Shown here in pieces: positions 1,873 through 55,854 of a DNA stretch of 64,000 nt. Source of the stretch: a plasmid. The notes under the pieces were generated by a model. That model was not told the DNA's origin and ran no database searches. It was given only the letters and a program-made list of their open reading frames with translations. The stretch lies in sequence record NZ_CP104760.1, one strand, 5' to 3'. The translations under genes and the position numbers were made by a program. Each line of letters starts with the position of its first letter. Position 1 is the stretch's first letter.

Positions 1873-4353
1873 ATGAAAATCATTAAACCACGCCACCTGG
1901 GCTTGTTACCGCGCCCCTTCCGTTGGCAGCGCCAGCACTATCTCGGCGTCGCCGTTATGGCGATGATAAATATGGATGCGCTGCCGCGCCTGCTGACCGA
2001 GCAGGCGCTATGGAATCTGCTGCCAGAGGCGCTGCAGTCGCCCGATGGCGTGCTCGATCACGGCCTGCCTAAACCGCACCCGGAGTTTCTCGCCAGCGGC
2101 TTTGCCTTTCCGCCCGGCGGCGCGGCATCGCACTGTATCGCCCGCATCCAGGTAGCCGATCGGGAAAAAACGCTGCACGTTTACGGCGATCGCCAGCGGC
2201 GGGAGGATGGCCTCAGCGCACCGCAGCCTTTTACGCAGATGCCGCTCGACTGGCAACATGCGTTGGGCGACGCAGGCGACAGCGAAAATCCGCTGGGCAA
2301 GGCGATACCCAACGTCGAGGCGGCCGCGCCGCTGCTGATCCAGCCCGGCGCGGGCGCGCTTCCTGCCAGCTTTAACGCGGTGCCGTTAAGCGCGCCGCGT
2401 CGCCTGCGCCACGTTGGCAGCGCCTTTGACGAGGCCTGGCTGGCGCATGACTATCCTGGCTTCGCCCGCGATGCCGACCGACGCCTGTTTAACCAGGGCG
2501 ATGCGGATCAGCGCTGGGACGATCGCGACGCCCTGCCCGCTGGCGCCGCCTGGCGCATTGAAAACATGCATCCAGATAAATCGCTGCTTGAGGGATGCCT
2601 GCCGCCGTGGCAGGCACGCTGTTTCGTGGTGCGTCAGCATACCCACGGCGAGATGTTTGAAGCGATCCCGCTGCGCGCCACGACGCTGCACTTTTTCCCT
2701 CATCTGGAGCGCATTGTGATGATCTGGCATGGCGAGCTGGCGATCCGTGAAGATGACGCTGCAGACGTGCTCACCACGGTCGCAGCGCTCGAGTCGATCC
2801 ACCAGCCGCGCACGCCCGAAGCCTATGAAGAGATCACGCGGCAACGCAGCGACCCCGAACGCTCGGTGCTGCTTGCGTTACGCGACGGCGAGTTGCTGCC
2901 CCCAGGCAGCGCCATTACGGATGACGAGCCTGAACCGCCTCCCGGCCCGACAGATCGCAACCTTGCGCGCTGGGAAACGGCGCAGCGCCAGCAGCTGCGG
3001 CATGCGCACAGCGACAGCGGGATGGATATAGATGCGCTGGCGCCCACCCGACCGCGCGCTCCGACGGTGCCGCTGGAGGATCTGCATGATTATATCGACG
3101 CGCAGGATCGCGCCGCGCAGCAGCAGCTGGCGCAGATGATAACGCGCTATCAGCAGGAAGCGGCGCTGGCTCCGCCCGCCGCCAGACCGGCCGCCGCGAT
3201 AGAGACCTATCGCAGCCAGCGCGCCGCGTTTGACGAGAACGCGCAGCAGCAGCCGATGGATGACCGTCAGCGTACGTTCAGCTCTCAGGCGCTGCGTGAC
3301 AGCTACCGCTTTAATGCTCATCAGCTGAGCGCGCCCGAGCGCCTGACGCCCGCGCAGTCGGCGCAGTTGCGTCAGGCGGTGCTGACGCGCGATGGCGACT
3401 GCCGCGAGATGGATCTCACCGGCGCGGATCTGTCAGGGCTTGACCTGCGCGACACCGACTTCAGCGGCGCGCTGCTGGAGAATGTCGATTTCAGCCACTG
3501 CCAGCTCGACGGCAGCCTGTTCAGCAATGCCGTGCTGACGCGCGCAGAACTGCATCGCTGCTCAGCCCGCGCCTGCGCCTTCGATAATGCCAGCCTGGCT
3601 CTGGCCCAGTGCTGTTACGCCGACTTTAGCGATTCAGTCTTCAGCGAGACGGAGTGCCGGGATCTGATGCTGGAACAGTGCGTTTTCGATCGCGCCACCC
3701 TCAGTGACGTAATGCTGACACAGGCGAGCCTGGCGCACTGCCGCTTTCATCATGCGCAGATCGTCAATGCCCATTTCAGCGAGCTGACGCTGCAGGCGCT
3801 CGACTTCAGTCACGCCACGCTGCGCAAAGTCTATTTCGTCGAGTGCCATCTGCTGGCGCTCAGTTTCGAACAGGCGCGCCTGACGGCGGTGGGCTTCGTC
3901 GACTGTCAGGCGCCAGAAATCTGTTTTCATCAGGCGCAGCTGCATACTTCGCTGTTTGTCACCGATACGGCCCTGATCCGCGCCGACTTCAGCGGCGCCA
4001 CGCTGACGCAGTGCAATCTGCGGGAGACGCGGCTGGCGCAGGCGAACTTTTCTCACGCCATGCTGATCAACAGCGACCTCAGCGGCGCGGACTGTACGCA
4101 GGCGGATATGCGGCGGATGCAGGCCAGGGAGTGCCAGTTTACCCGTGCGGATTTGACGCGGGCGACGCTGGCGGAGAGCGACCTGATCGGCGCCTCCTTC
4201 TCAAAATCTCAGCTGCAGGGATGTGATTTCAGCGGCTGCAACCTGTTCCGCGCCGACCTCTCGCTTAGCGTGCGCGATGCGACGACGCGCTTCGAAGAGG
4301 CCTGGCTTAACGGCATGAAAACCGCGCCGCAGCGCGACGAGGAGCATTCGTGA
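1873..4353 (+). CDS. DUF2169-domain protein with C-terminal pentapeptide-repeat region (VgrG-associated adaptor-like)
   Basis: The N-terminal region is typical of DUF2169 proteins found directly downstream of vgrG. The C-terminal third consists of A(D/N)LSGxxLxx pentapeptide repeats. Confidence 0.75.
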   Translation: MKIIKPRHLGLLPRPFRWQRQHYLGVAVMAMINMDALPRLLTEQALWNLLPEALQSPDGVLDHGLPKPHPEFLASGFAFPPGGAASHCIARIQVADREKTLHVYGDRQRREDGLSAPQPFTQMPLDWQHALGDAGDSENPLGKAIPNVEAAAPLLIQPGAGALPASFNAVPLSAPRRLRHVGSAFDEAWLAHDYPGFARDADRRLFNQGDADQRWDDRDALPAGAAWRIENMHPDKSLLEGCLPPWQARCFVVRQHTHGEMFEAIPLRATTLHFFPHLERIVMIWHGELAIREDDAADVLTTVAALESIHQPRTPEAYEEITRQRSDPERSVLLALRDGELLPPGSAITDDEPEPPPGPTDRNLARWETAQRQQLRHAHSDSGMDIDALAPTRPRAPTVPLEDLHDYIDAQDRAAQQQLAQMITRYQQEAALAPPAARPAAAIETYRSQRAAFDENAQQQPMDDRQRTFSSQALRDSYRFNAHQLSAPERLTPAQSAQLRQAVLTRDGDCREMDLTGADLSGLDLRDTDFSGALLENVDFSHCQLDGSLFSNAVLTRAELHRCSARACAFDNASLALAQCCYADFSDSVFSETECRDLMLEQCVFDRATLSDVMLTQASLAHCRFHHAQIVNAHFSELTLQALDFSHATLRKVYFVECHLLALSFEQARLTAVGFVDCQAPEICFHQAQLHTSLFVTDTALIRADFSGATLTQCNLRETRLAQANFSHAMLINSDLSGADCTQADMRRMQARECQFTRADLTRATLAESDLIGASFSKSQLQGCDFSGCNLFRADLSLSVRDATTRFEEAWLNGMKTAPQRDEEHS

Positions 4354-5408
4354 ACGGGATGACGGCTGAGGCGGTCGAGCGCGCCATCCAGCACGGCGAG
4401 ATGATCTATCAGGTCGGGCTGCAGGGCCTGGACTTCAGCGGACGCGATCTCTCCGGCGGCTCTTTTATCGAGGTCGACTTAACCGGCGCACGCCTGACAG
4501 ACTGCAATCTGCATGAGACGCGCTTCAGCGACTGCTGCCTGCGCGGCAGCGATTTTTCAGGCAACAGGCTAGAGGAGACGCTGTTCAACCAGTGCGTTAT
4601 GACCGGCGCGCGCTTCAGCGATTGCGGCCTCTACCAGTGTCTGTTCAGCCAGTGTCAGCTTGAAGAAAGTCAGTTCGACGCCAGCGCGCAGATCGGCACG
4701 CAGTTCCTGGGCGGCTCGCTTAGCGACAGCGATTTTCAGCACGCCGCGCTGCAAGGATGCGGCTTCAGCGATCTGGGACATTTAACGCTCCAGCTTGCCG
4801 GGTGCTGGTGCGAGCAGGGTTCCTTTATGAACGCCGACCTGCGTCAGGCGGACTTTAGCGCGGCGCGCTTCTCGCTCACGACCTTTTTCGCCTGCGACCT
4901 GCGGCTGCAAACGCTGGACGGCGTGGCGTTTAACCAGTGCCAGTTTACGCAAAGCCAGCTGGACGGCGCCAGCTTCCACCAGGCGATCCTGAGCCAGTGC
5001 GGTCTCAGCGGTCTGTCGCTACGCCAGGCCAGGCTGACGCAGGTGCAGGCGCAGCAAACGCTGTTTAACGCCGCCGATATGACCGGCTGTGACTGCCGCG
5101 ACGCGCAGTTTGCTCAGGCCAACTTTGCCGACGCGATTCTGACCGGCTGCGATTTCAGCCGCAGCGATCTACAGCGCGCCGTGCTGGCGCGCAGCCGTGC
5201 CGTTCAGACGCGCTTCGACGGCTGCGATATGACCTGGGCGGACTGCACCAGGGCGCAAATGGATGAGGCGCAGTTTAACGACGCGCAGTTCGGGCACACC
5301 CGCTTCCACCGCGCCAGCACGCACCAGAGCGAATTCACCTCGCGCAGCGGTATTATTGAACGGGATGAAGCGCTGTTTGCAGCAGAGGAGTGGAGCCGCC
5401 AGCGTTAA
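4350..5408 (+). CDS. Pentapeptide-repeat protein (T6SS/VgrG-associated)
   Basis: 352 aa made almost entirely of pentapeptide repeats (…DLSGGSFIEVDLTGARLTDCNLHETRFSDCCLRGSDFSG…). GTG start with GAGGAG SD 5 nt upstream; overlaps the previous stop. Confidence 0.75.
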   Translation: MNGMTAEAVERAIQHGEMIYQVGLQGLDFSGRDLSGGSFIEVDLTGARLTDCNLHETRFSDCCLRGSDFSGNRLEETLFNQCVMTGARFSDCGLYQCLFSQCQLEESQFDASAQIGTQFLGGSLSDSDFQHAALQGCGFSDLGHLTLQLAGCWCEQGSFMNADLRQADFSAARFSLTTFFACDLRLQTLDGVAFNQCQFTQSQLDGASFHQAILSQCGLSGLSLRQARLTQVQAQQTLFNAADMTGCDCRDAQFAQANFADAILTGCDFSRSDLQRAVLARSRAVQTRFDGCDMTWADCTRAQMDEAQFNDAQFGHTRFHRASTHQSEFTSRSGIIERDEALFAAEEWSRQR

Positions 5409-5479
5409 ATTATTTCGCCGCGTGCGACGGCGATTATAAAAAATTTATTATGCCATATTTATTATTGACGATTGACGCT

Positions 5480-5508
5480 GCGGCCTTAAAGAGGCCGCTT
5501 TTGCTTTT
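5480..5508 (+). terminator. Rho-independent terminator after the pentapeptide-repeat gene
   Basis: Stem GCGGCCT / AGGCCGC with loop TAAAG, followed by TTTTGCTTTT. Confidence 0.6.
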
Positions 5509-6241
5509 GTGTGAATTAAATATTTATGACAGAAGGCTGAGAAGATCCGTTAGTCAGTGACGGAGATAATTAACCTGTGAAATGATATTCACTGTTTTCC
5601 TTTGCTGGCCTTATATTATTCGGACTAAATGGCTGTGTATTGCTGAAAATTAACGCCTGTTTCAAACGGGTGTCATAAAGGCTGCGCTAACCAGATATTT
5701 ACTATGCTGTTTCAGTATCGGATATCTTTCAATATATCATTGATTTTTATAGCTTTGATTTTATTTAATTCAGATTTAAATTTAATTATGACATTTACAT
5801 TAAGTTTATATGAATATTTTCCCGGGCTATTTATTAAGAGTATTCCCATCTTCACAGGTGCCAGCGAATAATGTAAATATGTTCCCCGGTTAGTGTATTT
5901 ATTGAGTAAATTATTTCGCATCATGAACGCTGCGTATGCGCCACGCCTCTATTTATTCTGGCGGAGCTGTTTGCGTCTTTTTACTGGCGGCAAAAAATCA
6001 AAATATATTACCTGAGGGTTATTGTTTCTTCTATGCGCCTCTTTTTAACGTGCAGTTTATTCGCCCCGACAGGCTTTGCAGCAGAAAGAATCGCCTTTAT
6101 TTGCCGTCAGTCTCTGAAAAAAGCGGCTAATCACGCTGTTATCGATGCGCGTGGAAATAACCGCGTCGGCGCAGGAAAAACCGTTACGCCGCGCCTCCCC
6201 TGTTTCGTGCCATTCCCTTTCGTCGATTGTGAGAGTTCGCT

Positions 6242-39810: not shown

Positions 39811-40340
39811 CGACCAGCGATCGTTTTATTCTTTTCTGCTTTAGTGAAAGAACCAGGCCCCATCGGGCCTGGTTTTAATTATTCGGCGCAGGCGCCAAAC
39901 CGGAGGCATAAGATGGCAGGCTGGCATAGTGTAAACCAGCAAATTTCTGAATCTGCCTGTTCCGCTCCCTAAATATATCCTCATCTGGATCTGCTTGTTA
40001 ATCAGCTGTTGCCCTGGCGGCGTTGTTTTCCCTTTATACGTCCCTTTAATAAGGGAAGGTGCAATTAATTAACTTCATCATTACTTCCTTTCTAATGCGG
40101 GAGTGGATTATGGCCTGCACTGGGTATCCCGACCGTTTTCAAATGTTATCATGCCTTGAAACCTGAATTACCTTAACGATTAACGTCATATCGTTATAAA
40201 AACGTTGCGAAACATGTTTTTAGCCTTTTGTGTTTCGCAGCATATTCAGGTTTAACGCGAGGTCATAATATTAAGTTTTTAAATCGATATTATTTTCATG
40301 ACCCTTTCGTACGGGAATCTTTAATAAAGAAAGGAATACT

Positions 40341-41033
40341 ATGCGCAAGATTATTTTATCCTCTGTTATTTCTGTAGCGTTGGGAACGGCGAGTTTTGCA
40401 GGTTTTGCTGCGACCACTGCCACGCTGGCTGTAAAAGGTTCCATAGAACCGACATCCTGCGATATTTCGCTGAGCACTGCATCCATTGACTTTTCTACTA
40501 TCTCTGCTGCAAGCCTGACGGACCCTGTTAATTCAAGAATGGGCGCTCCATTTACCCTGAATCTGACCTGCAGTGGGGCCACTGCCGTCGCGGTTCAGAC
40601 GACTGACAACCGTGCTGCCAGCGCAATGACCACAGCGGAAGTTCTGAGCGATATGGGCGTAAACATGGGCACCACAGTGGCTAATGCATCGCTTTTTGGC
40701 ATTGGCACCCACAACACAGATAAAAAAGTCGGCTTTCTGCAGTTGAGCATGAGTGAGGCGAATCTGAATGGCACCGCCAGCAGCAATCTGCTCACAAGCA
40801 GTGATAAACGAACCTGGAATAGTAAGACAGTTTCATCAAGCAAGCGATTTTCTTTAGAGAAGGACGGTTATTTTTCCCTCGCGAGCAGCGCCAGTTCCAG
40901 TACGCCGGCAGCGGCTACCAGCGCCAGCTATACCCTTACGCCTGCAATTGTTCTGAAGCACGGCGATCATTATCCAGGAGGCGAAGCGGTCAATATTGAC
41001 GGCAACGTGACATTCTCAGTGGTCTATATCTGA
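40341..41033 (+). CDS. Secreted DUF1120-like putative fimbrial subunit
   Basis: Signal peptide; Ser/Thr/Ala-rich beta-rich 230 aa. First gene of a chaperone-usher operon. Confidence 0.55.
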   Translation: MRKIILSSVISVALGTASFAGFAATTATLAVKGSIEPTSCDISLSTASIDFSTISAASLTDPVNSRMGAPFTLNLTCSGATAVAVQTTDNRAASAMTTAEVLSDMGVNMGTTVANASLFGIGTHNTDKKVGFLQLSMSEANLNGTASSNLLTSSDKRTWNSKTVSSSKRFSLEKDGYFSLASSASSSTPAAATSASYTLTPAIVLKHGDHYPGGEAVNIDGNVTFSVVYI

Positions 41034-41094
41034 TTTTTACTTTTTTGCGAAGGCATATTGCCTTCGCTTATTTTTTTCAAATGATACTAATCCT

Positions 41095-41775
41095 ATGTTA
41101 CTTAAAAACAGCCTTATTATTGCTCTTCTCTTTTTATCCGCTTCCAGCGCTATTGCGGCGGGTATGAAACCTCAGGTTCCGGTGTTATTTATTGACGATG
41201 AAAATCGTGAGGCGACCATTACTGTAGAGAATACAGACAGCAGCCCAGCCTTACTGCACAGCAGCCTGCAAACTATTCCGGAAGATCGCGAAAACAAATT
41301 AATTCTCACGCCGCAGCTTGCACGGGTTGAGGCCGGCGATAAGCAGCAGGTACGGGTGGTTTTAAAGGAGGGCATCACGCTGACCACTCAAACCATGCAG
41401 CGCATTAATTTCACCCCTGTGCCCACTGACGACGGCAAGAAAAACCGTGCGCGCGTGACTATCGGCCAGAATATTCCCGTTATTCTCTCTCCGGCGAGCC
41501 TGCCGCTGAATACCACGCCGTGGCAAGGGCTAACAGCCCAGCGTGCCGGCACGTCCCTCTTTATTAACAATCCAACGCCCTATATCGTCCGGCTGACGAC
41601 GCAGATCGATCTGCTGCCAGGCAAAACCAGGGTGGAATTGCCGAAAACCTATATTTTGCCACACGAATCGATCACGCTTGCGCTGCCCCAAGGTGCCAGT
41701 CACGCGCAAAGCCTCCGGTTGCATCCCGTTACCCGGTTCGGCATTCTGACGGCGCCTTATGAGCTAAGGCTGTGA
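41095..41775 (+). CDS. Periplasmic fimbrial chaperone (PapD-like)
   Basis: Signal peptide; 226 aa; chaperone-like sequence; position before the usher. Confidence 0.65.
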   Translation: MLLKNSLIIALLFLSASSAIAAGMKPQVPVLFIDDENREATITVENTDSSPALLHSSLQTIPEDRENKLILTPQLARVEAGDKQQVRVVLKEGITLTTQTMQRINFTPVPTDDGKKNRARVTIGQNIPVILSPASLPLNTTPWQGLTAQRAGTSLFINNPTPYIVRLTTQIDLLPGKTRVELPKTYILPHESITLALPQGASHAQSLRLHPVTRFGILTAPYELRL

Positions 41776-44144
41776 CTGACATGATAAGAATGGCGATCTT
41801 CACAGCTTCGGTGATAGCCTCAGCCAGCGCGGCGGCGACGGTAAAATATGACAAAGAGATGCTCGCATCGCTTGGTTACGATCCCAGCGCAGCGGCGTTA
41901 TTTGAGGCTGGCGCACATTTCTTTCCCGGCGAGAACGCCGTGAATATTAGCGTCAACGGGAAAAATAAAGGCGTGCATCGGGTCATTTTTGACAGCGCTG
42001 GCTCGCCCTGCTGGAACGAGGCGCTGCTGCGCAAGCTGGGCATCGATTCGCTCAGCTTTGATGGATACAGACCTGCCTGCCTGAAGCCGCTGGCGAGCAG
42101 TAAAATAAACATCAAAGAAGAGGTCAGGCGTAGCCGTTTGCAGCTACAGGTCCCCGTTAGCAGCCTGCTGCGGGAGGTACAGTATGCGACCGGCGGCAAG
42201 GCGGCTATCGTTAATTACGATGCCAGACACTATCAGTTTCAGAGCCGTAGCGGCGAAAACCATCATTCTCAATCGCTGACGTCAGAAGTCGGCGCGAATA
42301 TCAGCCACTGGATCCTTCGCAGCGGGCAGAGCTATTCGGCGCTTGATAATCAAAACACCTTCACCCGCCTTTACAGCTACGGGCAGCGATCGGTTCCTGC
42401 CTGGGCGTCGGTTATACAGGTCGGTGAAATTATCTCCAGCGACGCCCTCTTCTCAGGCATCACGCTGACCGGCGCACAAATTGTGCCGGAACGCGCCACC
42501 CAAAACGGCGGCATGAATCTTGTCAGTCTCAACGTGCTTATTCCCCAGACAGGCAGCGCTGAAGTCTGGCAGGGCAACGTTTTGCTAAAAACTTTTACCG
42601 TCACTGCCGGTATGAACAGACTGAGCAGGATCCCCGCGCTTAACCAGCAGGATGATTTTGTTATCATCATTCGCGATGAGAGCGGTAATCAACAACAGCA
42701 AACCTTTCCCGTTATCCAGGCGATGCCGGAAACGCTCCTGCTTGATATGGGGACCTCTCTGGCGCTGGGACAGCTGCGTTTGACGCAAGAGAAATATCCG
42801 TTGCTGTTGGGGTCAACGGGCGTTTTTCAGCATCCGAGGATGGCGGTTGGCGTTGGCGGGCTGGTAAGCGAAGCCTATCAGGCAGGAGGCTGGCGCGCCT
42901 CTGTACGGCTTTCCGAATACCTGCTGGCGACCCTGTCGCAGACCTGGTCCCTTGCGCATAAGGGCGCAGATAGCGAAGGAAGAAAGCAGGGACTTAATCA
43001 TCAGGCCGGGCTGATTTATCCCGTGACGCAGCGACTCTCGCTGACCGCCTCAATGAATACCCGCAGCCGTAACTATGTTGATACCAGCAGCTCCTGGTCC
43101 TCTCATAAAACCGCTGCAGAAACCGGGCAAATCAAATCGCAATATGCGGCAGGCGTGAGTTACAGCCATGAGTGGCTGGGCGTTTTCTCGTTTACCGGCA
43201 GTCAGGCTCGCAGCTGGCAAGGCAGCGATATGCTGGGGTATACGCAGGCATGGGGACGGGCCTTTGGCAAGGTCAACGTCAACCTGGGCGTACAGAAAAA
43301 CCGGCTGACAAGCGATCGGCGTCATTATGATAATCGTTACGCTTATCTCAGTTTTTCGCTGCCGCTGGGAGAAAACCGCAGCCTGCGCAGCTGGATTAAC
43401 AGCAATGACGGGAGATCGCAGGGCGGCATCGGCTACGATCAAAGCCTGAACGATAAATTCGCATGGAGCCTGTCGAGCGAGAAAAATCAGCGCGACGATC
43501 CCTCTCTGGCTGGATCAGCCAGCTGGACAAGTAAATATACCCAGCTAAGCGGCGGCGCGTCCCGCAGCGATACCAGCACCAGCTTTAATGCTGGCGCGCG
43601 CGGCGGCGCGGTGCTGCATAGCGAAGGGCTGACCTTCACGCCGCGTAGCGTGGGCGATACGTTTAGTGTTATTTCACTCAACAATGCCCTGCCGGACGTC
43701 GAGATGCGGACGCCCGCCGGCGCCGTGTGGAGCGACCGCGGCGGCTATGCCATTTCATCATGGATGCCCTGGCAGAAGAATACGGTGCACATCAACCCGA
43801 CAAGCCTGCCGAAAAATGTTCAGGTTCCTGGCGGCATTATTGACGTCTTGCCCTACCGCGGCGCTGTTGTTCCTGTGACGCTTCCCGCTTTCACCGTGCG
43901 TCGCACGCTGCTGAGCTTTCCTGCCAATGAAAAGCCCGCGCCGGGCAGCGCCGTAAAAGATGAAAAAGGGCTGCTGCTGGCATTTGTTAACGAAGACGGC
44001 ACGATCTTTTTCGACGATCTGCCTGACGGCAGGCTTTACGTGCAGCGGTCCGACGGCAAACGTTGCGTTATCACGCTGACTTCGCCATGGGCTGCGGGCC
44101 CAGGCGCCCTTTATGCCTCCCTTTCTGCGAGATGTGTAACGTGA
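41772..44144 (+). CDS. Fimbrial outer-membrane usher protein
   Basis: 790 aa; usher-like length and beta-barrel-type sequence; coupled to the chaperone gene. Confidence 0.75.
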   Translation: MTDMIRMAIFTASVIASASAAATVKYDKEMLASLGYDPSAAALFEAGAHFFPGENAVNISVNGKNKGVHRVIFDSAGSPCWNEALLRKLGIDSLSFDGYRPACLKPLASSKINIKEEVRRSRLQLQVPVSSLLREVQYATGGKAAIVNYDARHYQFQSRSGENHHSQSLTSEVGANISHWILRSGQSYSALDNQNTFTRLYSYGQRSVPAWASVIQVGEIISSDALFSGITLTGAQIVPERATQNGGMNLVSLNVLIPQTGSAEVWQGNVLLKTFTVTAGMNRLSRIPALNQQDDFVIIIRDESGNQQQQTFPVIQAMPETLLLDMGTSLALGQLRLTQEKYPLLLGSTGVFQHPRMAVGVGGLVSEAYQAGGWRASVRLSEYLLATLSQTWSLAHKGADSEGRKQGLNHQAGLIYPVTQRLSLTASMNTRSRNYVDTSSSWSSHKTAAETGQIKSQYAAGVSYSHEWLGVFSFTGSQARSWQGSDMLGYTQAWGRAFGKVNVNLGVQKNRLTSDRRHYDNRYAYLSFSLPLGENRSLRSWINSNDGRSQGGIGYDQSLNDKFAWSLSSEKNQRDDPSLAGSASWTSKYTQLSGGASRSDTSTSFNAGARGGAVLHSEGLTFTPRSVGDTFSVISLNNALPDVEMRTPAGAVWSDRGGYAISSWMPWQKNTVHINPTSLPKNVQVPGGIIDVLPYRGAVVPVTLPAFTVRRTLLSFPANEKPAPGSAVKDEKGLLLAFVNEDGTIFFDDLPDGRLYVQRSDGKRCVITLTSPWAAGPGALYASLSARCVT

Positions 44145-52210: not shown

Positions 52211-52439
52211 GCCAGCGATATTCGTGGCGCAGTCGGGCGCCAGGCTAATGCGGCCCTGGTCAACGGCCAGCAGCGATCCTTTCGCTATTCCAGCATCATG
52301 ATAATCAATGGCTTTTCTGACAAATTCTATACATTAAGGCGACAGATGCACTAAACGCCAAAGCTAAAATGCTGCGCTGCATAGCCTGCCACCCTTTGAT
52401 AATTTCAATTTCAGAGGATATAAAGTACGTAATTTCTTC

Positions 52440-53129
52440 TCAAAATAAATCGCTCGTTCCAAATATACGATTAAGGTTCGTTTTCCCAACCTTAGTGACA
52501 AAAACGGCGCGGCTGTTTTTTTTCTTTATAATCCATTCTGATTTAACGAATCGATCTGCAAGAATATTTCCCAGAAAGCCGCCAAGGTGCGGGACGCGTT
52601 CAGTCCAGTCCATACACTGGATTGCAACTTTTTCTGGGATTGACTCCGGGCCAGCTGGAAGCAAATTATGATAGCTAAACCAGTCAGCCCCGTTACTGGT
52701 CAAATGAATAGTCTTAGAATGACCTTCAGTCTGAATGTAATGTAATTCGAGCAACTTTTGATAAATTAAAACGCCAAGATGTCCAGCCAGATGATTAAAA
52801 CAATAACGAGCCTGACATATTTCATTTTCAGGTAACTTCCGGTGTATTCCTTTACTACTGGCAAGATACATAACCGACTCTACAACAGAGGCTACATCAG
52901 AGGAGCTGAGCGTAAAATACTTAAATTTACCTTGCTTAAAGGTTTTCACAAGGCCGCTGTCAACAAGTGCTTTAAGATGAGCCGTTGCGGCTGAAGGCAG
53001 AAGGCCAGTTCCGTATGCCAGCTCTTTTGCCGTGAAATATCGTCCCTCCATCATCAGAACTAACATTTCAAGTCTGCGCTGATTCCCTAAGGCTATAGCT
53101 AACTGATTTAAAACATTTTTATTAAACAT
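52440..53129 (-). CDS. Winged-helix (ArsR/SmtB-like) transcriptional regulator with an extra C-terminal domain; low-GC island gene
   Basis: HTH segment LEMLVLMMEGRYFTAKELAYGTGLLPSAATAHLKALVDSGLV. AT-rich codon usage unlike the flanking mal genes. Divergent from the peptide/MccB-like operon. Confidence 0.6.
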   Translation of the reverse strand: MFNKNVLNQLAIALGNQRRLEMLVLMMEGRYFTAKELAYGTGLLPSAATAHLKALVDSGLVKTFKQGKFKYFTLSSSDVASVVESVMYLASSKGIHRKLPENEICQARYCFNHLAGHLGVLIYQKLLELHYIQTEGHSKTIHLTSNGADWFSYHNLLPAGPESIPEKVAIQCMDWTERVPHLGGFLGNILADRFVKSEWIIKKKNSRAVFVTKVGKTNLNRIFGTSDLF

Positions 53130-53191
53130 AGTTCATCCTTGACTGAATGGTTAAAACTTGAAACATATCCTGAAACGTTCTAATTGTATTT

Positions 53192-53212
53192 TTGCATTGT
53201 ATCTAAATGCAA
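53192..53212. promoter_or_regulatory. Inverted repeat TTGCAT-N9-ATGCAA in the divergent promoter region of the island
   Basis: Perfect 6-bp arms, read directly. Lies 37 bp upstream of the peptide start codon. Confidence 0.35.
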
Positions 53213-53248
53213 TACAAGTTTATTTCATTTAATTATAGGGGGTTCATT

Positions 53249-53302
53249 ATGAAATTTACAAAATTTAATGCGTCAAATGCAACTCTGGCTGCTGTAGGTT
53301 GA
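53249..53302 (+). CDS. 17-aa peptide MKFTKFNASNATLAAVG, candidate RiPP precursor for the downstream MccB-like enzyme
   Basis: Strong SD (GGGGG, 6 nt spacer) then ATG. Followed after 17 nt by a stable attenuator hairpin. Arrangement as in mccA-mccB. Confidence 0.45.
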   Translation: MKFTKFNASNATLAAVG

Positions 53303-53320
53303 TTTGGCCACTAAGAATTA

Positions 53321-53345
53321 AAGGGCCTGTAACAGGCCCTTTCTA
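53321..53345 (+). terminator. Intrinsic attenuator/terminator hairpin between peptide gene and MccB-like gene
   Basis: Stem AAGGGCCTG / CAGGCCCTT with loop TAA, then TCT; perfect 9-bp stem. Confidence 0.6.
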
Positions 53346-53372
53346 AGGGATTTAGTTAAAAGGGAGTTTATT

Positions 53373-54476
53373 ATGGATGTCATGAAGGTGTGTCTTAAAC
53401 CTACGGTTCTTTTATACAAAAACAACCCCAATAAAGTAGTGTTAAGGTTCTGTTCAGAAATAATAGAATTTGATGATGAGCGTGGCGATATACGGTTTTT
53501 CTTCGGTTTACTATGTGGAGCGTACACCTCGAAAGAAATCCTTGATGAGTATGCCAAAAAATATCCATATGATTCAGGCAGAGCCAGAGATTATCTGGAT
53601 ACGCTTAATGAACTGAAACTGATTGAACTACAACCTCAGGATTATAGCCCACTAAGTGACGCTCAGAAAGAAAGATATTCGCGAAACTTTGAATTCTTTA
53701 ATTCAGCTTTGCCAGTTGGAATGAACAAATATGGCATTCAGTGTTCCTTACTTGACAGTCGGGTAGTCGTATTAGGATGTGGAGGACTCGGTAGCCATAT
53801 CATTCTTGAACTCGCCGCGTTGGGAGTCGGAAACCTGACTATCGTTGACTTTGATCTGATTGAACTTAGTAACCTGAACAGGCAGATTCTATACAGAGAA
53901 GCAGATCTCGGACGAAAAAAAGTGTTTGCTGCAAGAAATAATGCCCTTACTTTCAACTCCAGTATTAATATCACCCCCGTTGAAAAGAAAATTGAATCAG
54001 TTTTAGATATAAAAGAAATAATTGTTGATCATGATCTTGTAATCTGCGTTGCAGATAAACCGCGAAACAGTATGGTTAAATGGCTTAATGAAGCCTGCTG
54101 CAAAGCAAAGATACCTTACATCAATGGCGGGCTTGATATTCGTAAGGCTGTTTTCTATTCGGTTATCCCTGGTGAAACCGGCTGCACAGAATGCTGGAAA
54201 TCATTTTTGCCCGAACAAAACAGGAAAGTAATCGATGAGGATAGCAGTACCCAAAATGATTATATGACCCCAGCCCCGGCTCTTTCAGCTCTCGTGTCTG
54301 TGACAACGGGCGCTATGATCTGTGAAGCAATTAAACTGTTAACTGATCTACAGCCACCCTCGCTGACAAACAATCTTAAAACCTTCTCTTTTGATGATTT
54401 GACTATCACTACAACTGAAAAGTGGAGGTTAAATCCAGAGTGTCATTGCTGCGAAATTATCGAAGGCCGAAAATGA
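53373..54476 (+). CDS. MccB-like ThiF/E1-family peptide adenylyltransferase (microcin C-type RiPP maturation enzyme)
   Basis: Rossmann motif VVVLGCGGLGSHI. ERYSRNFEFF and GETGCTEC motifs align with E. coli MccB (NRYSRNFLHY, GKTGCYEC). Second Cys cluster CHCC at the C-terminus. About 110-aa N-terminal extension, likely a peptide-clamp/RRE domain. Confidence 0.75.
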   Translation: MDVMKVCLKPTVLLYKNNPNKVVLRFCSEIIEFDDERGDIRFFFGLLCGAYTSKEILDEYAKKYPYDSGRARDYLDTLNELKLIELQPQDYSPLSDAQKERYSRNFEFFNSALPVGMNKYGIQCSLLDSRVVVLGCGGLGSHIILELAALGVGNLTIVDFDLIELSNLNRQILYREADLGRKKVFAARNNALTFNSSINITPVEKKIESVLDIKEIIVDHDLVICVADKPRNSMVKWLNEACCKAKIPYINGGLDIRKAVFYSVIPGETGCTECWKSFLPEQNRKVIDEDSSTQNDYMTPAPALSALVSVTTGAMICEAIKLLTDLQPPSLTNNLKTFSFDDLTITTTEKWRLNPECHCCEIIEGRK

Positions 54477-55642
54477 ACAAACTTATTTTATCTTATGCCA
54501 ACACTTCTTTTGGCTTCTGGTTGATATCATTTCTTATACCACTCATTGTTCTTGACATTAGTGGTTCAGCTTTTCTTGTCTCTCTTTCCTATGCGCTGAA
54601 TGTTTTTCCTTATATAGTAATAACCCCTCTCGCAGGGGTTGTTTGTGATACATATAACAGGAAAAATATCATTATGGCAGGGGAGTTATTTTGCTGTATT
54701 ACATCATTGTTACTGTTTTTTATTATCGATTTTAACCCTTCTGCTTATCTTGTTATAGGGCTAGGTTTTATTGTCTCATCCTTGTCAGCGATGCATCACC
54801 CTGTTTTTCAGTCGTTGATACCTGACCTGTATGAGCAAAATGAAATCAAGAATATTAACGCAAGCGTTGGCGTTATCGACAGCACCGTCAGTATACTTGC
54901 TCCGGTTATTTTAGGGGCGTTATTCTATAAATTCTCTAAGCAATCCGCATTGCTCCTTGTTACCCTTTGTTATTTTTTATCTTTTATAACCATTTTAACT
55001 ATACCTTATCACGGTCATAAGTCACAGGCGATATTGTCTTTGCAACACATCTGGGGTTCTTTACGGAAAGGTTTTGAATATGTCTTACATCAGAAAGCGT
55101 TATTCAATTTATCCTGCCTTTTTTTCTTTATTAATATGGGTATCAGGGTTATATTCCCCAACCTGATTTGGATTTATAGCGCCCAGTTTCATTTGAGCTC
55201 AGAGCAAATTGCTATAATGTTTGTGATTATTGGATTTGGCTCTATTTTAGGTGCGCGCATCGGGGCAGCTCTAATTGGACGGTTTGCCGATGTTTCTATC
55301 ATTATCTATTGCTCAATGATCATTGGCTTATGCAGTATACTGTTACTGGCCGCAAATAGTGCTCTGATGCACGCCATTACCTGGGCACTATCATCTTTAG
55401 TTCAATCGATTATTGTTGTTACCTATTTTACCTACAGACAAAAAGTCACAGAGCCTTATATACTCGGGAGAGTAGTATCAGTTACAAGATTAATATCTTA
55501 TATGGCTATACCTCTGGCTTCGGTATCAAGTGGCTGGGCAATATCAGTTTATGACTCTGTAACTGTTATTTATATTTTCAGCGCGCTGGTAATTCTGGTG
55601 CCGCTTTTATTCTATTGGCTGGCTACTCGAAAAGCAGTCTGA
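54473..55642 (+). CDS. MFS transporter (MccC-like exporter)
   Basis: 389 aa; 12 predicted TM helices; ATG overlaps the MccB-like stop (ATGA). Confidence 0.75.
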   Translation: MNKLILSYANTSFGFWLISFLIPLIVLDISGSAFLVSLSYALNVFPYIVITPLAGVVCDTYNRKNIIMAGELFCCITSLLLFFIIDFNPSAYLVIGLGFIVSSLSAMHHPVFQSLIPDLYEQNEIKNINASVGVIDSTVSILAPVILGALFYKFSKQSALLLVTLCYFLSFITILTIPYHGHKSQAILSLQHIWGSLRKGFEYVLHQKALFNLSCLFFFINMGIRVIFPNLIWIYSAQFHLSSEQIAIMFVIIGFGSILGARIGAALIGRFADVSIIIYCSMIIGLCSILLLAANSALMHAITWALSSLVQSIIVVTYFTYRQKVTEPYILGRVVSVTRLISYMAIPLASVSSGWAISVYDSVTVIYIFSALVILVPLLFYWLATRKAV

Positions 55643-55854
55643 AAGGTAAGAAGTCATTTCAATGCCTGCCTTTGGCAGGCCTGATGGTAAGAAATTAATC
55701 CTCTAAGATCTGGTGCTTTAAGCCTTGTAAATACTCCCTTTTGCTATGTTTTCATCGCCTCAGATTCCTGAGACTGAGCCGATGAAAAAGAAGAACAACC
55801 CTACGCCCTCACCATCCGTTCCCTGATAGCGATTAACCTCTCCGCAGTCGCTCA

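Follow-up and report, generated by a model that had tools for sequence, protein, structure and literature searches.

An overlooked 17-codon peptide gene beside an MccB-related enzyme in a mobile island of a Pantoea piersonii plasmid

We investigated a 64,000-nt stretch of DNA (hereafter, the window) from the ~262-kb Pantoea piersonii plasmid NZ_CP104760.1. In this window, a ~3.6-kb island located in the intergenic slot between malQ and malM encompasses four genes, namely, those for a divergently transcribed regulator, a 17-residue peptide, a ThiF-like adenylating enzyme of the MccB/PaaA family and a major facilitator superfamily (MFS) transporter. The list of open reading frames (ORFs) together with the Pfam matches showed nothing more in the island, and an Rfam search detected no RNA family in it. 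An earlier note on this DNA, prepared from the sequence alone, had described the enzyme and the pump, but missed the 17-codon gene, the ArsR-type regulator, the island status and a peptide pattern conserved across phyla. The overlooked precursor and its cross-phylum signature are of greater interest than the enzyme and the pump themselves. The features of the locus, in window coordinates, are as follows.

52240..55852, no strand: AT-rich, horizontally acquired island, delimited by the GC profile and by the end of homology to a sister plasmid.
52440..53129, minus strand: divergent regulator of 229 aa, with an ArsR/SmtB/HlyU-type winged helix and a C-terminal domain of ~130 aa (Pfam, NCBIfam).
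53130..53248, no strand: putative divergent control region separating the regulator gene from the peptide gene, with an inverted repeat and a promoter-like site.
53249..53302, plus strand: unannotated 17-codon precursor-peptide gene, product MKFTKFNASNATLAAVG (Shine-Dalgarno site, orthologues, codon-position bias, family pattern).
53320..53342, plus strand: stem-loop in the gap between the peptide gene and the enzyme gene, with 11-bp arms that are 100% complementary and separated by 1 nt.
53373..54476, plus strand: ThiF-like adenylating enzyme of the MccB/PaaA family, 367 aa (Pfam, alignment with MccB, fold).
53373..53717, plus strand: predicted N-terminal peptide-binding domain of the enzyme, approximately residues 1-115, resembling a clamp or the recognition element (RRE) of pathways for peptides that are synthesized ribosomally and modified after translation (RiPPs) (structural model and superposition).
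54473..55642, plus strand: MFS transporter of 389 aa with 12 transmembrane segments, similar to H+ antiporters and EntS/Mef exporters (Pfam, hydrophobic segments; WP_269950724.1).

The peptide gene lies 70 nt upstream of the enzyme gene and is preceded by a GGGGG Shine-Dalgarno (SD) sequence 6 nt 5' of its start codon. The same four-part layout, surrounded by unrelated flanks, was found in the closest relatives of the locus: two metagenomic loci, L081 and L082 (enzyme identity 83% and 62%; peptides MKFTKFNASNATLSAVG and MKFTKSDATNATLAAVG, respectively), a locus of Salmonella conjugative plasmids, L083, where the cluster resides beside KfrA, ParDE and IS21 (55%; MKFTKHATSNAKLALVG), and a locus of the [Enterobacter] lignolyticus chromosome, L086 (56%; MKFVKVKASNASLASVG). 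All of these loci contain orthologous ORFs of 17 aa, and nucleotide differences at the first, second and third codon positions number 46, 27 and 88, respectively, an excess of third-position changes among the enteric orthologues that argues for a translated sequence. In the one RefSeq Salmonella record that we inspected, the peptide gene is unannotated.

We extended the comparison to a wider set of 80 genome loci from a scan of genome contigs, with enzymes that, among the matches listed, are mostly at most 47% identical to that of the window. The clade was delimited by an enzyme score of at least 197 bits against the enzyme of the window, which left 53 listed loci above the cut and 33 more distant ThiF-like loci below it. 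Upstream ORFs were accepted as candidate precursors if they combined an ATG start and an SD site with a length of 15-19 aa and the pattern [ST]-x-[AS]-x6-end. A peptide that passed this filter was present in 49 of the 53 clade loci, compared with two of the 33 distant loci that fitted the pattern and none of the 33 with an SD site, among the matches listed; the peptides were already visible in the unfiltered ORF listing. The clade loci span at least five phyla (Pseudomonadota, Bacteroidota, Cyanobacteriota, Actinomycetota and Bacillota), with peptides such as MTFEKASSAGDSQIG in Pseudomonas, MSVAMKTRKASAAGQAHEG in Streptomyces and MLKQKRVHSASIAGIAVEG in Streptococcus. The Nostoc calcicola locus (L008) carries two identical tandem genes for MKVRIHKATFAGRSAVG, at 5601-5654 and 5757-5810, each with the same SD sequence, followed by one enzyme gene. 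Clustering of the neighborhoods showed that the only universal neighbors are the peptide, the ThiF-like enzyme and the MFS transporter.

When 39 unique peptides were anchored at their C-termini, position -9 was occupied by Ser in 37 and by Thr in two, and position -7 by Ala in 36 and by Ser in three. Gly is found at position -6 in 25 peptides, position -2 is mostly Glu (17), Val (12) or Pro (5), and the terminal residue is Gly in 33, the rest ending in S, T, F or N, with a single Asn. These 39 peptides have no positionally conserved Lys, Asp/Glu, Cys or Asn, and contain neither Trp nor Cys. The C-terminus is the only carboxylate that the family conserves, and among nucleophilic side chains only the hydroxyl at -9 is conserved. 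Between L045 and L027, the remaining motif is offset by one residue, yet Ser or Thr stays at -9; the L005 peptide keeps Ser at -9 although its -7 and -1 residues differ. Judging from these sequence comparisons, the 17-codon ORF is a genuine peptide gene that is conserved in pattern, and we propose that residues 1-8 of MKFTKFNASNATLAAVG constitute a leader and residues 9-17 (S-N-A-T-L-A-A-V-G) the core.

The ORF of the enzyme is not a chance occurrence, because exactly the same protein is present in NCBI, as a ThiF family adenylyltransferase from a P. piersonii plasmid, along with hundreds of family relatives. The Pfam ThiF domain covers residues 123-358 (E 5.9e-50); the ~120 residues that precede it have no match in Pfam or NCBIfam. 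The N-terminal extension, Gly-rich loop, RYSRNF motif and two cysteine clusters to which the earlier note had drawn attention are all present within the coordinates that it gave: RYSRNF spans residues 101-106, VVVLGCGGLGS 131-141, CTEC 271-274 and CHCC 357-360, and their counterparts in the alignment with E. coli MccB are RYSRNF, VVILGCGGIGN, GCYEC and CSVC. Residues that never vary in a 36-sequence family alignment include R101, R104, N105, G135, G137, G138, G140, D161, N167, R170, Q171, K183, D228, C271 and C274, with C357 and C360 conserved in at least 90% of the sequences. Five further invariant positions, K9, K119, W275, E349 and W351, are specific to the clade and differ from MccB, which makes them candidates for general bases or for residues that shape the ring. 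The cysteine pairs align with the Zn-site cysteines of MccB, in agreement with the earlier proposal that the clusters bind Zn, and C271, C274, C357 and C360 are the predicted ligands. The enzyme has the ATP-binding and catalytic motifs of the MccB family (RxSRN, the Gly-rich loop, NLxRQ and the catalytic Asp) as well as the two CxxC motifs. Its nearest relatives of solved structure, by sequence, are MccB (E 2e-36), MoeB (E 4e-26) and PaaA (E 9e-19), with IndF more distant (65 bits over 116 aa).

An AlphaFold2 model of the enzyme built on the family alignment had a mean predicted local distance difference test (pLDDT) score of 92.7 and a predicted template-modelling (pTM) score of 0.91, with an N-terminal domain of strands and helices at pLDDT 84-97. 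Foldseek comparison with the PDB aligned this model with MccB over 360 columns (query-normalised template-modelling (TM) score 0.80, E 3e-28) and with PaaA over 355 columns (0.69), whereas MoeB and ThiF aligned over only ~270 columns (0.55-0.60). Because the 245-residue adenylation domain alone cannot yield a TM score of 0.80 on 367 residues, the N-terminal domain corresponds to the peptide-binding domain of MccB and PaaA. The structural check that the earlier note had suggested, superposition of a predicted structure on MccB, accordingly came out in favor of its peptide clamp and not of the alternative that it named, a surface binding ThiS or MoaD; there is no ThiS/MoaD-like gene in the ORF list of the island. 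The enzyme as modelled therefore combines a peptide clamp at its N-terminus with an adenylation domain of the E1 type. The NCBIfam equivalogs (ThiF, MoeB and others) all score far below their cut-offs (MoeB 123 vs 449, ThiF 120 vs 275). What requires qualification in the designation "MccB-like" is the chemistry: the fold and the catalytic core agree with MccB, but the cognate peptide ends in Gly and not in Asn. A HMMER search with the N-terminal domain alone, as a single-sequence query against a library of 1.84 billion representative proteins, returned 10 matches and is insensitive as a gauge of clade size. In two very large proteins, P0189 (1662 aa) and P0190 (2016 aa), approximately seven stretches each match the N-terminal domain (E 4e-12 and 5e-11, respectively), and these may be repeat proteins composed of RRE-like modules.

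The downstream gene encodes an MFS transporter, as stated in the earlier note, with Pfam MFS_1 and MFS_3 scoring well above their thresholds (98.8 vs 33.4, E 4e-28, and 60.4 vs 27, E 1.5e-16, respectively) and 12 hydrophobic segments arranged 6+6 around a central loop. The H+-antiporter subfamily model TIGR00900 aligned over residues 5-357 but scored 143.5 against a cut-off of 319.6, so that membership in this subfamily is not established. The start codon (ATG, 54473-54475) overlaps the stop codon of the enzyme (TGA, 54474-54476) in an ATGA sequence, and the same start is used for the 389-aa protein in NCBI (WP_269950724.1). This overlap, which had been taken to imply stoichiometric co-expression of synthesis and export, is absent in relatives, where the two genes are separated by gaps of 1-11 nt, so that the stoichiometric claim over-reads a 4-nt overlap; the conserved feature is tight linkage. 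The underlying idea fared better, since an MFS homologue (E 1e-33 to 1e-70) directly follows the enzyme gene in approximately 35 of the 44 clade loci listed, which supports a unit of synthesis plus export. The transporter presumably serves both in export and in self-immunity.

Some related loci contain companion genes. Three of the five enteric-type loci have, beside the cluster, a small gene with an antibiotic-biosynthesis-monooxygenase-like (ABM) domain (L081:3701-4057, L082:3170-3544 and L083:8303-8608); the three copies are 43-46% identical to each other and may add an extra tailoring step there, and no ABM gene or remnant of one was found when we looked for it in the window. In actinobacterial versions of the cluster (loci L012, L013, L016, L018, L022, L026 and L029; L037, L042, L044, L046 and L048), a gene for a ~600-aa protein resembling HExxH metallopeptidases adjoins the enzyme gene. 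A Streptomyces subgroup with the Thr-ended peptide MSIVLKTRKTSIAGRAVAT has no adjacent MFS gene.

The stem-loop between the peptide and enzyme genes has a calculated energy of -19.3 kcal/mol, which places it in the top 2% of windows in a positional background control within its own locus. Nearly all loci have a stable stem-loop behind the peptide gene. The sequences of these hairpins are unrelated, and in 19 of 25 related loci the equivalent hairpin ranks within the top 5% of background windows from its own locus; a T-run after the stem is common in the relatives. Such an element is probably a partial terminator or attenuator that sets the ratio of peptide to enzyme. Against this assignment count the modest shuffle z-score of the hairpin in the window, only -1.2, and the lack of a good T-run behind it (TTTCT only).

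On the other side of the peptide gene, the putative control region contains an imperfect inverted repeat (53204-53214/53221-53231, 91% complementary), the right end of which is overlapped by a promoter-like site on the minus strand (53261-53232, TTGTAA-18-TATAAT). The divergent regulator matches Pfam HTH_5 (E 1.3e-7) and NCBIfam HTH_metalloreg, and its sequence and fold matches in the PDB are limited to residues 10-91. The same regulator occupies the same position in L081, L083 and L086, with C110, H113, C172, D174, W175, E177 and H181 invariant. In a structural model, the C-terminal domain consists of two beta-beta-alpha repeats, for which Foldseek found no matching solved structure; its invariant Cys and His residues resemble a Cys2His2 metal or redox site.

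The island is foreign and horizontally mobile. Its GC content is ~39-42%, compared with ~61% in the flanks (0.391 for the cluster and 0.615 for the flanks in the composition profile). The flanks are ~99% identical to those of a sister P. piersonii plasmid, NZ_CP115897, with homology stopping at 52239 and restarting at 55853; in that plasmid, the slot between malQ and malM is occupied not by the island but by a vapBC toxin-antitoxin pair. The corresponding slot contains an Rpn-family transposase gene in the plasmid of Pantoea sp. Nvir and is empty in P. dispersa plasmids. The malQ-malM intergenic site is therefore a variable slot on Pantoea megaplasmids, and comparison with PLSDB recovered no plasmid carrying the island. 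Positions 52500-55638 of the window show 81% DNA identity to the metagenomic locus L081, whose flanks differ, and in all enteric hosts the cluster is richer in AT than the DNA on either side, which is different in each host. The sporadic distribution of this mobile, AT-rich unit is reminiscent of microcins; a role as a signal would likewise agree with the dedicated regulator and with the lack of a separate immunity gene. In the insert, the initial ~60 bp (52240-52300) have a high GC content and resemble neither NZ_CP115897 nor the AT-rich cluster. Elsewhere in the window, GC content dips at 40001-42000 (0.489) and 4001-6000 (0.549) against ~0.60-0.65 in general, and these segments may have been acquired as well.

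In the RiPP pathways characterised in the accessible literature, ThiF-like enzymes adenylate a carboxylate that is then attacked by a nucleophile of the substrate, namely, the Asn amide for MccB, the Cys thiol for GrcB, the indole nitrogen of Trp for IndF and a backbone amide for EnfB, and PaaA follows a route through a cyclic imide (PMC12596934, PMC12250964, PMC12150305). E. coli MccB O-AMPylates MccA variants that end in Gly, Ala, Ser or Thr without producing a stable AMP adduct, the resulting peptidyl-O-AMP being captured by whichever nucleophile is offered; the same authors regard MccB as the exception among E1-like enzymes, its substrate not being Gly-terminal (PMC11118369). Compared with the systems producing indolylamides (IndF), thiolactones (GrcB) and cyclic imides (EnfB), the locus in the window has the same combination of an RRE-ThiF fusion, a short precursor and a transporter in the cluster, and the proposed logic is shared, that is, adenylation of a carboxylate followed by intramolecular ring closure with loss of water; in IndF and EnfB, the target is likewise the C-terminal carboxylate. 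The differences are that the candidate nucleophile in the window is Ser or Thr, which would yield an ester, a bond not reported for the ThiF-like family in the reviews; that the ring would comprise 9 residues instead of 3-5; and that those systems are restricted to Firmicutes, whereas the clade of the window occurs in five phyla. Neither the known cis nucleophiles (Trp indole, Cys thiol) nor the known motifs (WWIII, NWYFI and others) are found in the family peptides. In Pantoea agglomerans, a member of the same host genus, the pantocin A system (paaPABC; PaaA structure 5FF5) has an enzyme of the same MccB/PaaA family with the fold similarity given above, a short precursor, an MFS exporter (PaaC) and a history of horizontal acquisition. 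PaaA, however, activates a Glu side chain, whereas the family peptides have no conserved acidic residue and MKFTKFNASNATLAAVG contains no Glu; with neither a Glu-Glu-Asn core nor a PaaB-type partner enzyme, the locus does not belong to the pantocin A family.

The gene set and its conservation, the fold and catalytic residues of the enzyme, the pattern of the peptide and the island status are established directly, and we read the locus with considerable confidence as a peptide-modification-and-export operon. On balance, we favor a more specific form of this reading, a four-part mobile RiPP operon in which the Gly-ended C-terminus of the peptide is adenylated and captured internally before export by the MFS transporter. 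In the proposed sequence of events, the 17-residue MKFTKFNASNATLAAVG would be translated from 53249-53302, and its strand-prone N-terminal part (MKFTKFNA) would be gripped by the clamp domain in the fashion of MccB. The E1-like domain would then use ATP to adenylate the C-terminal alpha-carboxylate of Gly17, a step that we regard as likely. Because a Gly terminus offers no side-chain amide, the succinimide/N-P route of MccB is closed, and the peptidyl-AMP would instead be captured by a nucleophile within the peptide, for which the hydroxyl of Ser9 (position -9) is the likeliest candidate. Departure of AMP would leave a lariat consisting of a 9-residue macrolactone and an 8-residue tail, with an expected mass change of -18 Da. 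The neighboring MFS transporter would export this product and so shield the producer, the hairpin would let the peptide exceed the enzyme in amount, and the divergent winged helix-turn-helix protein would control the operon. The exported product may be an antimicrobial or a signalling peptide. For the ester to Ser(-9), which is suggested by sequence conservation, we claim somewhat less than an even chance; most of the remaining probability falls to other fates of the same intermediate, namely, reaction with an external amine or thiol, or formation of an imide, an oxazolone or a thiocarboxylate. More tentative still is the generalization that the clade constitutes a widespread RiPP class, present in at least five phyla, in which a clamp-plus-E1 enzyme closes a 9-residue C-terminal macrolactone onto the Ser of a Gly-ended peptide.

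Several observations weigh against this chemistry and its generalization. Instead of supplying the nucleophile, the fixed Ser-x-Ala-Gly motif could serve in recognition, at a set distance from the active site. Positions -9 and -7 were part of the filter by which the peptides were selected, although -1 and -6 were not. The single clear counter-example is L007, a locus of an amoeba symbiont (Amoebophilaceae), in whose peptide Leu occupies -9. Furthermore, the terminal residue is other than Gly in six of the 39 peptides, and Asn-ended peptides occur at L002, L005 and L033 (the last two outside the 39-peptide set), where chemistry of the MccB type could operate.

The most serious competing explanation, although an unlikely one, retains the operon and changes the chemistry: the adenylate would be intercepted by a backbone amide (imide), a carbonyl oxygen (oxazolone), an external amine or thiol, or sulfide (thiocarboxylate), with the S-x-A-G motif serving for recognition only. 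Precedents exist in EnfB, which reportedly forms an imide and amidates the C-terminus of its peptide with added amines (PMC11256085, PMC12596934), in OxzB, which produces oxazolones, and in the reaction of MccB-made Gly-O-AMP with many external nucleophiles (PMC11118369); L007, without the -9 hydroxyl, fits this scheme, and the ABM-domain gene of three of the five enteric-type loci could supply a further step. None of these routes, however, provides an obvious role for the near-invariant -9 hydroxyl, which is retained even where the motif shifts; neighborhood clustering recovered no conserved sulfurtransferase or amine-supplying gene nearby, and for a product that is to be exported, oxazolones and imides are prone to hydrolysis. 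A true microcin C-type system, exporting through the MFS transporter a stable peptidyl-nucleotide that acts as a Trojan-horse inhibitor of an aminoacyl-tRNA synthetase, seems improbable to us despite conspicuous parallels with the E. coli mccA-mccB-mccC cluster (3H5N, 3H9J, 6OM4). MccB is the closest solved relative in sequence and in fold, the gene order is identical, in that a very short precursor gene and then a hairpin stand directly upstream of the enzyme gene and an MFS exporter gene after it, both enzymes combine a clamp, an E1-like domain and a Zn site of two CxxC motifs, both units are mobile and AT-rich, and the three Asn-ended peptides of the clade would suit such chemistry. Nevertheless, MccB is only ~25% identical to the enzyme of the window overall (~35% in the core), the precursor in the window has 17 aa and ends in Gly, as do 33 of the 39 family peptides, whereas MccA has 7 aa and ends in Asn, and MccB makes no N-AMP product unless the last residue is Asn (PMC11118369). 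MKFTKFNASNATLAAVG does contain Asn internally, at positions 7 and 10, but the family as a whole does not conserve these residues. The island also lacks homologues of mccD, mccE and mccF in its ORF list and Pfam matches, although these genes are not strictly required in minimal mcc-like clusters (PMC4010828), and it has a dedicated winged helix-turn-helix regulator. Without a C-terminal Asn, the defining feature of the substrate, the locus cannot be placed in the microcin C family.

Very improbable, in our view, is a purely regulatory role for the 17-codon ORF, as a leader for translation-coupled attenuation at the hairpin, with the enzyme acting on a different substrate. The positionally conserved, terminator-like hairpin directly 3' of the ORF speaks for such a role, but a specific amino acid motif is kept over five phyla while the DNA and hairpin sequences diverge completely, changes in the ORF are in excess at the third codon position, the enzyme has a dedicated peptide-binding domain, and neighborhood clustering showed no alternative conserved substrate gene nearby. 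The two roles are not mutually exclusive, and the ORF might serve as both leader peptide and substrate. The remaining explanation, a ThiF/MoeB sulfur-carrier enzyme of primary metabolism or the E1 of a ubiquitin-like or anti-phage system that happens to reside beside a drug pump, is largely refuted, and we assign it minimal probability. It draws on the Pfam ThiF domain, on weak matches to the MoeB and ThiF models of NCBIfam and to the E1-E2 models of PADLOC, and on a peptide end that recalls the Gly termini of ThiS, MoaD and ubiquitin, which are likewise adenylated by an E1 fold. In the MoeB-MoaD, ThiF-ThiS and ubiquitin systems, however, the substrate is a folded beta-grasp protein bound by the adenylation domain itself, whereas the window has a 17-residue peptide and an added clamp domain that fits MccB/PaaA and not MoeB/ThiF; the equivalog scores are far too low, and the foreign island is missing from sister plasmids. 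The ORF list, Pfam and PADLOC revealed no ThiS/MoaD-like gene, rhodanese, E2 or JAB domain, leaving the enzyme without a sulfur-transfer or E2 partner. As for a Cap2-type E1-E2 anti-phage system, it was rejected: the PADLOC matches involve only residues ~120-230, against the E1 part of models of 430-780 residues, and there is no E2 or JAB neighbor.

ThiF-like RiPP clusters are known as a kind, and what appears to be new here, on sequence grounds, is the precursor class and the likely type of bond. We found no description of the Gly-terminal, Ser(-9) clade in the accessible literature, including two 2025 reviews; subscription journals were outside the search and may describe the clade. A Pseudomonas pan-genome cluster (YcaO/TfuA) that we considered is unrelated to the clade. 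A 2014 survey of MccB/PaaA homologues accepted precursors only if they had a C-terminal or internal Asn, and many of the homologues were left without an identifiable precursor gene (PMC4010828). The clade may have been overlooked because its precursor gene is unannotated, as in the RefSeq record inspected, and would fail this Asn rule. The 2025 reviews list five RiPP chemistries for ThiF-like enzymes, an active field in the discovery of peptide natural products, with most of the sequence space of the family unexplored. The locus described here represents a minimal testable system, with a 17-residue peptide, one enzyme and one pump, and its precursor signature, a hydroxyl at -9, Ala at -7 and usually a terminal Gly, is shared by Streptomyces, Streptococcus, Pseudomonas, Salmonella plasmids and Nostoc. 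Should the ester lariat be correct, this would be a new type of reaction for the family, the first macrocyclization by a ThiF-like enzyme with an oxygen nucleophile, and biotechnology would gain a simple peptide cyclase powered by ATP; bioconjugation already makes use of engineered MccB, which acts on Gly-terminal tags. The enzyme would then also constitute a natural intermediate between the E1s that activate proteins and the microcin C synthetase, in a minimal three-gene unit that might be developed into a cyclization tool. Moreover, the cluster resides on plasmids of clinical and food-associated Enterobacterales, namely, Pantoea piersonii, which includes blood-associated lineages, and the conjugative plasmids of Salmonella, so that an exported antimicrobial or signalling peptide could influence competition in those niches.

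Beyond the clade, more distant ThiF-like loci encode short peptides of other families, and the radiation of these enzymes has evidently involved a wide variety of precursor motifs. A survey of lactic acid bacteria in 2024 reported uncharacterised ThiF-like RiPP clusters of the "VEGR type" with Arg-ended peptides (PMC11256085). Pediococcus cellicola (L062) carries two upstream copies of MTLTKTTASAVEPSGR, an enzyme that scores only 133 bits against that of the window, and homologues of its regulator (E 2.7e-30) and its MFS transporter (E 1e-56). This locus probably represents the published VEGR type, which would make it a sister group rather than a member of the clade of the window: it is similar in being a small, uncharacterised MccB-related group with short peptides and a transporter, and differs in the Arg that follows the Gly. 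Finally, distant ThiF-like loci of Solirubrobacterales and other Actinomycetota, represented by metagenome-assembled genomes (L050-L078), encode peptides of the form ...P-[IL]-V-P-x5-K-G-[ALS], such as MKVTKTEKPIVPASSIQKGA, apparently another, undescribed precursor class.

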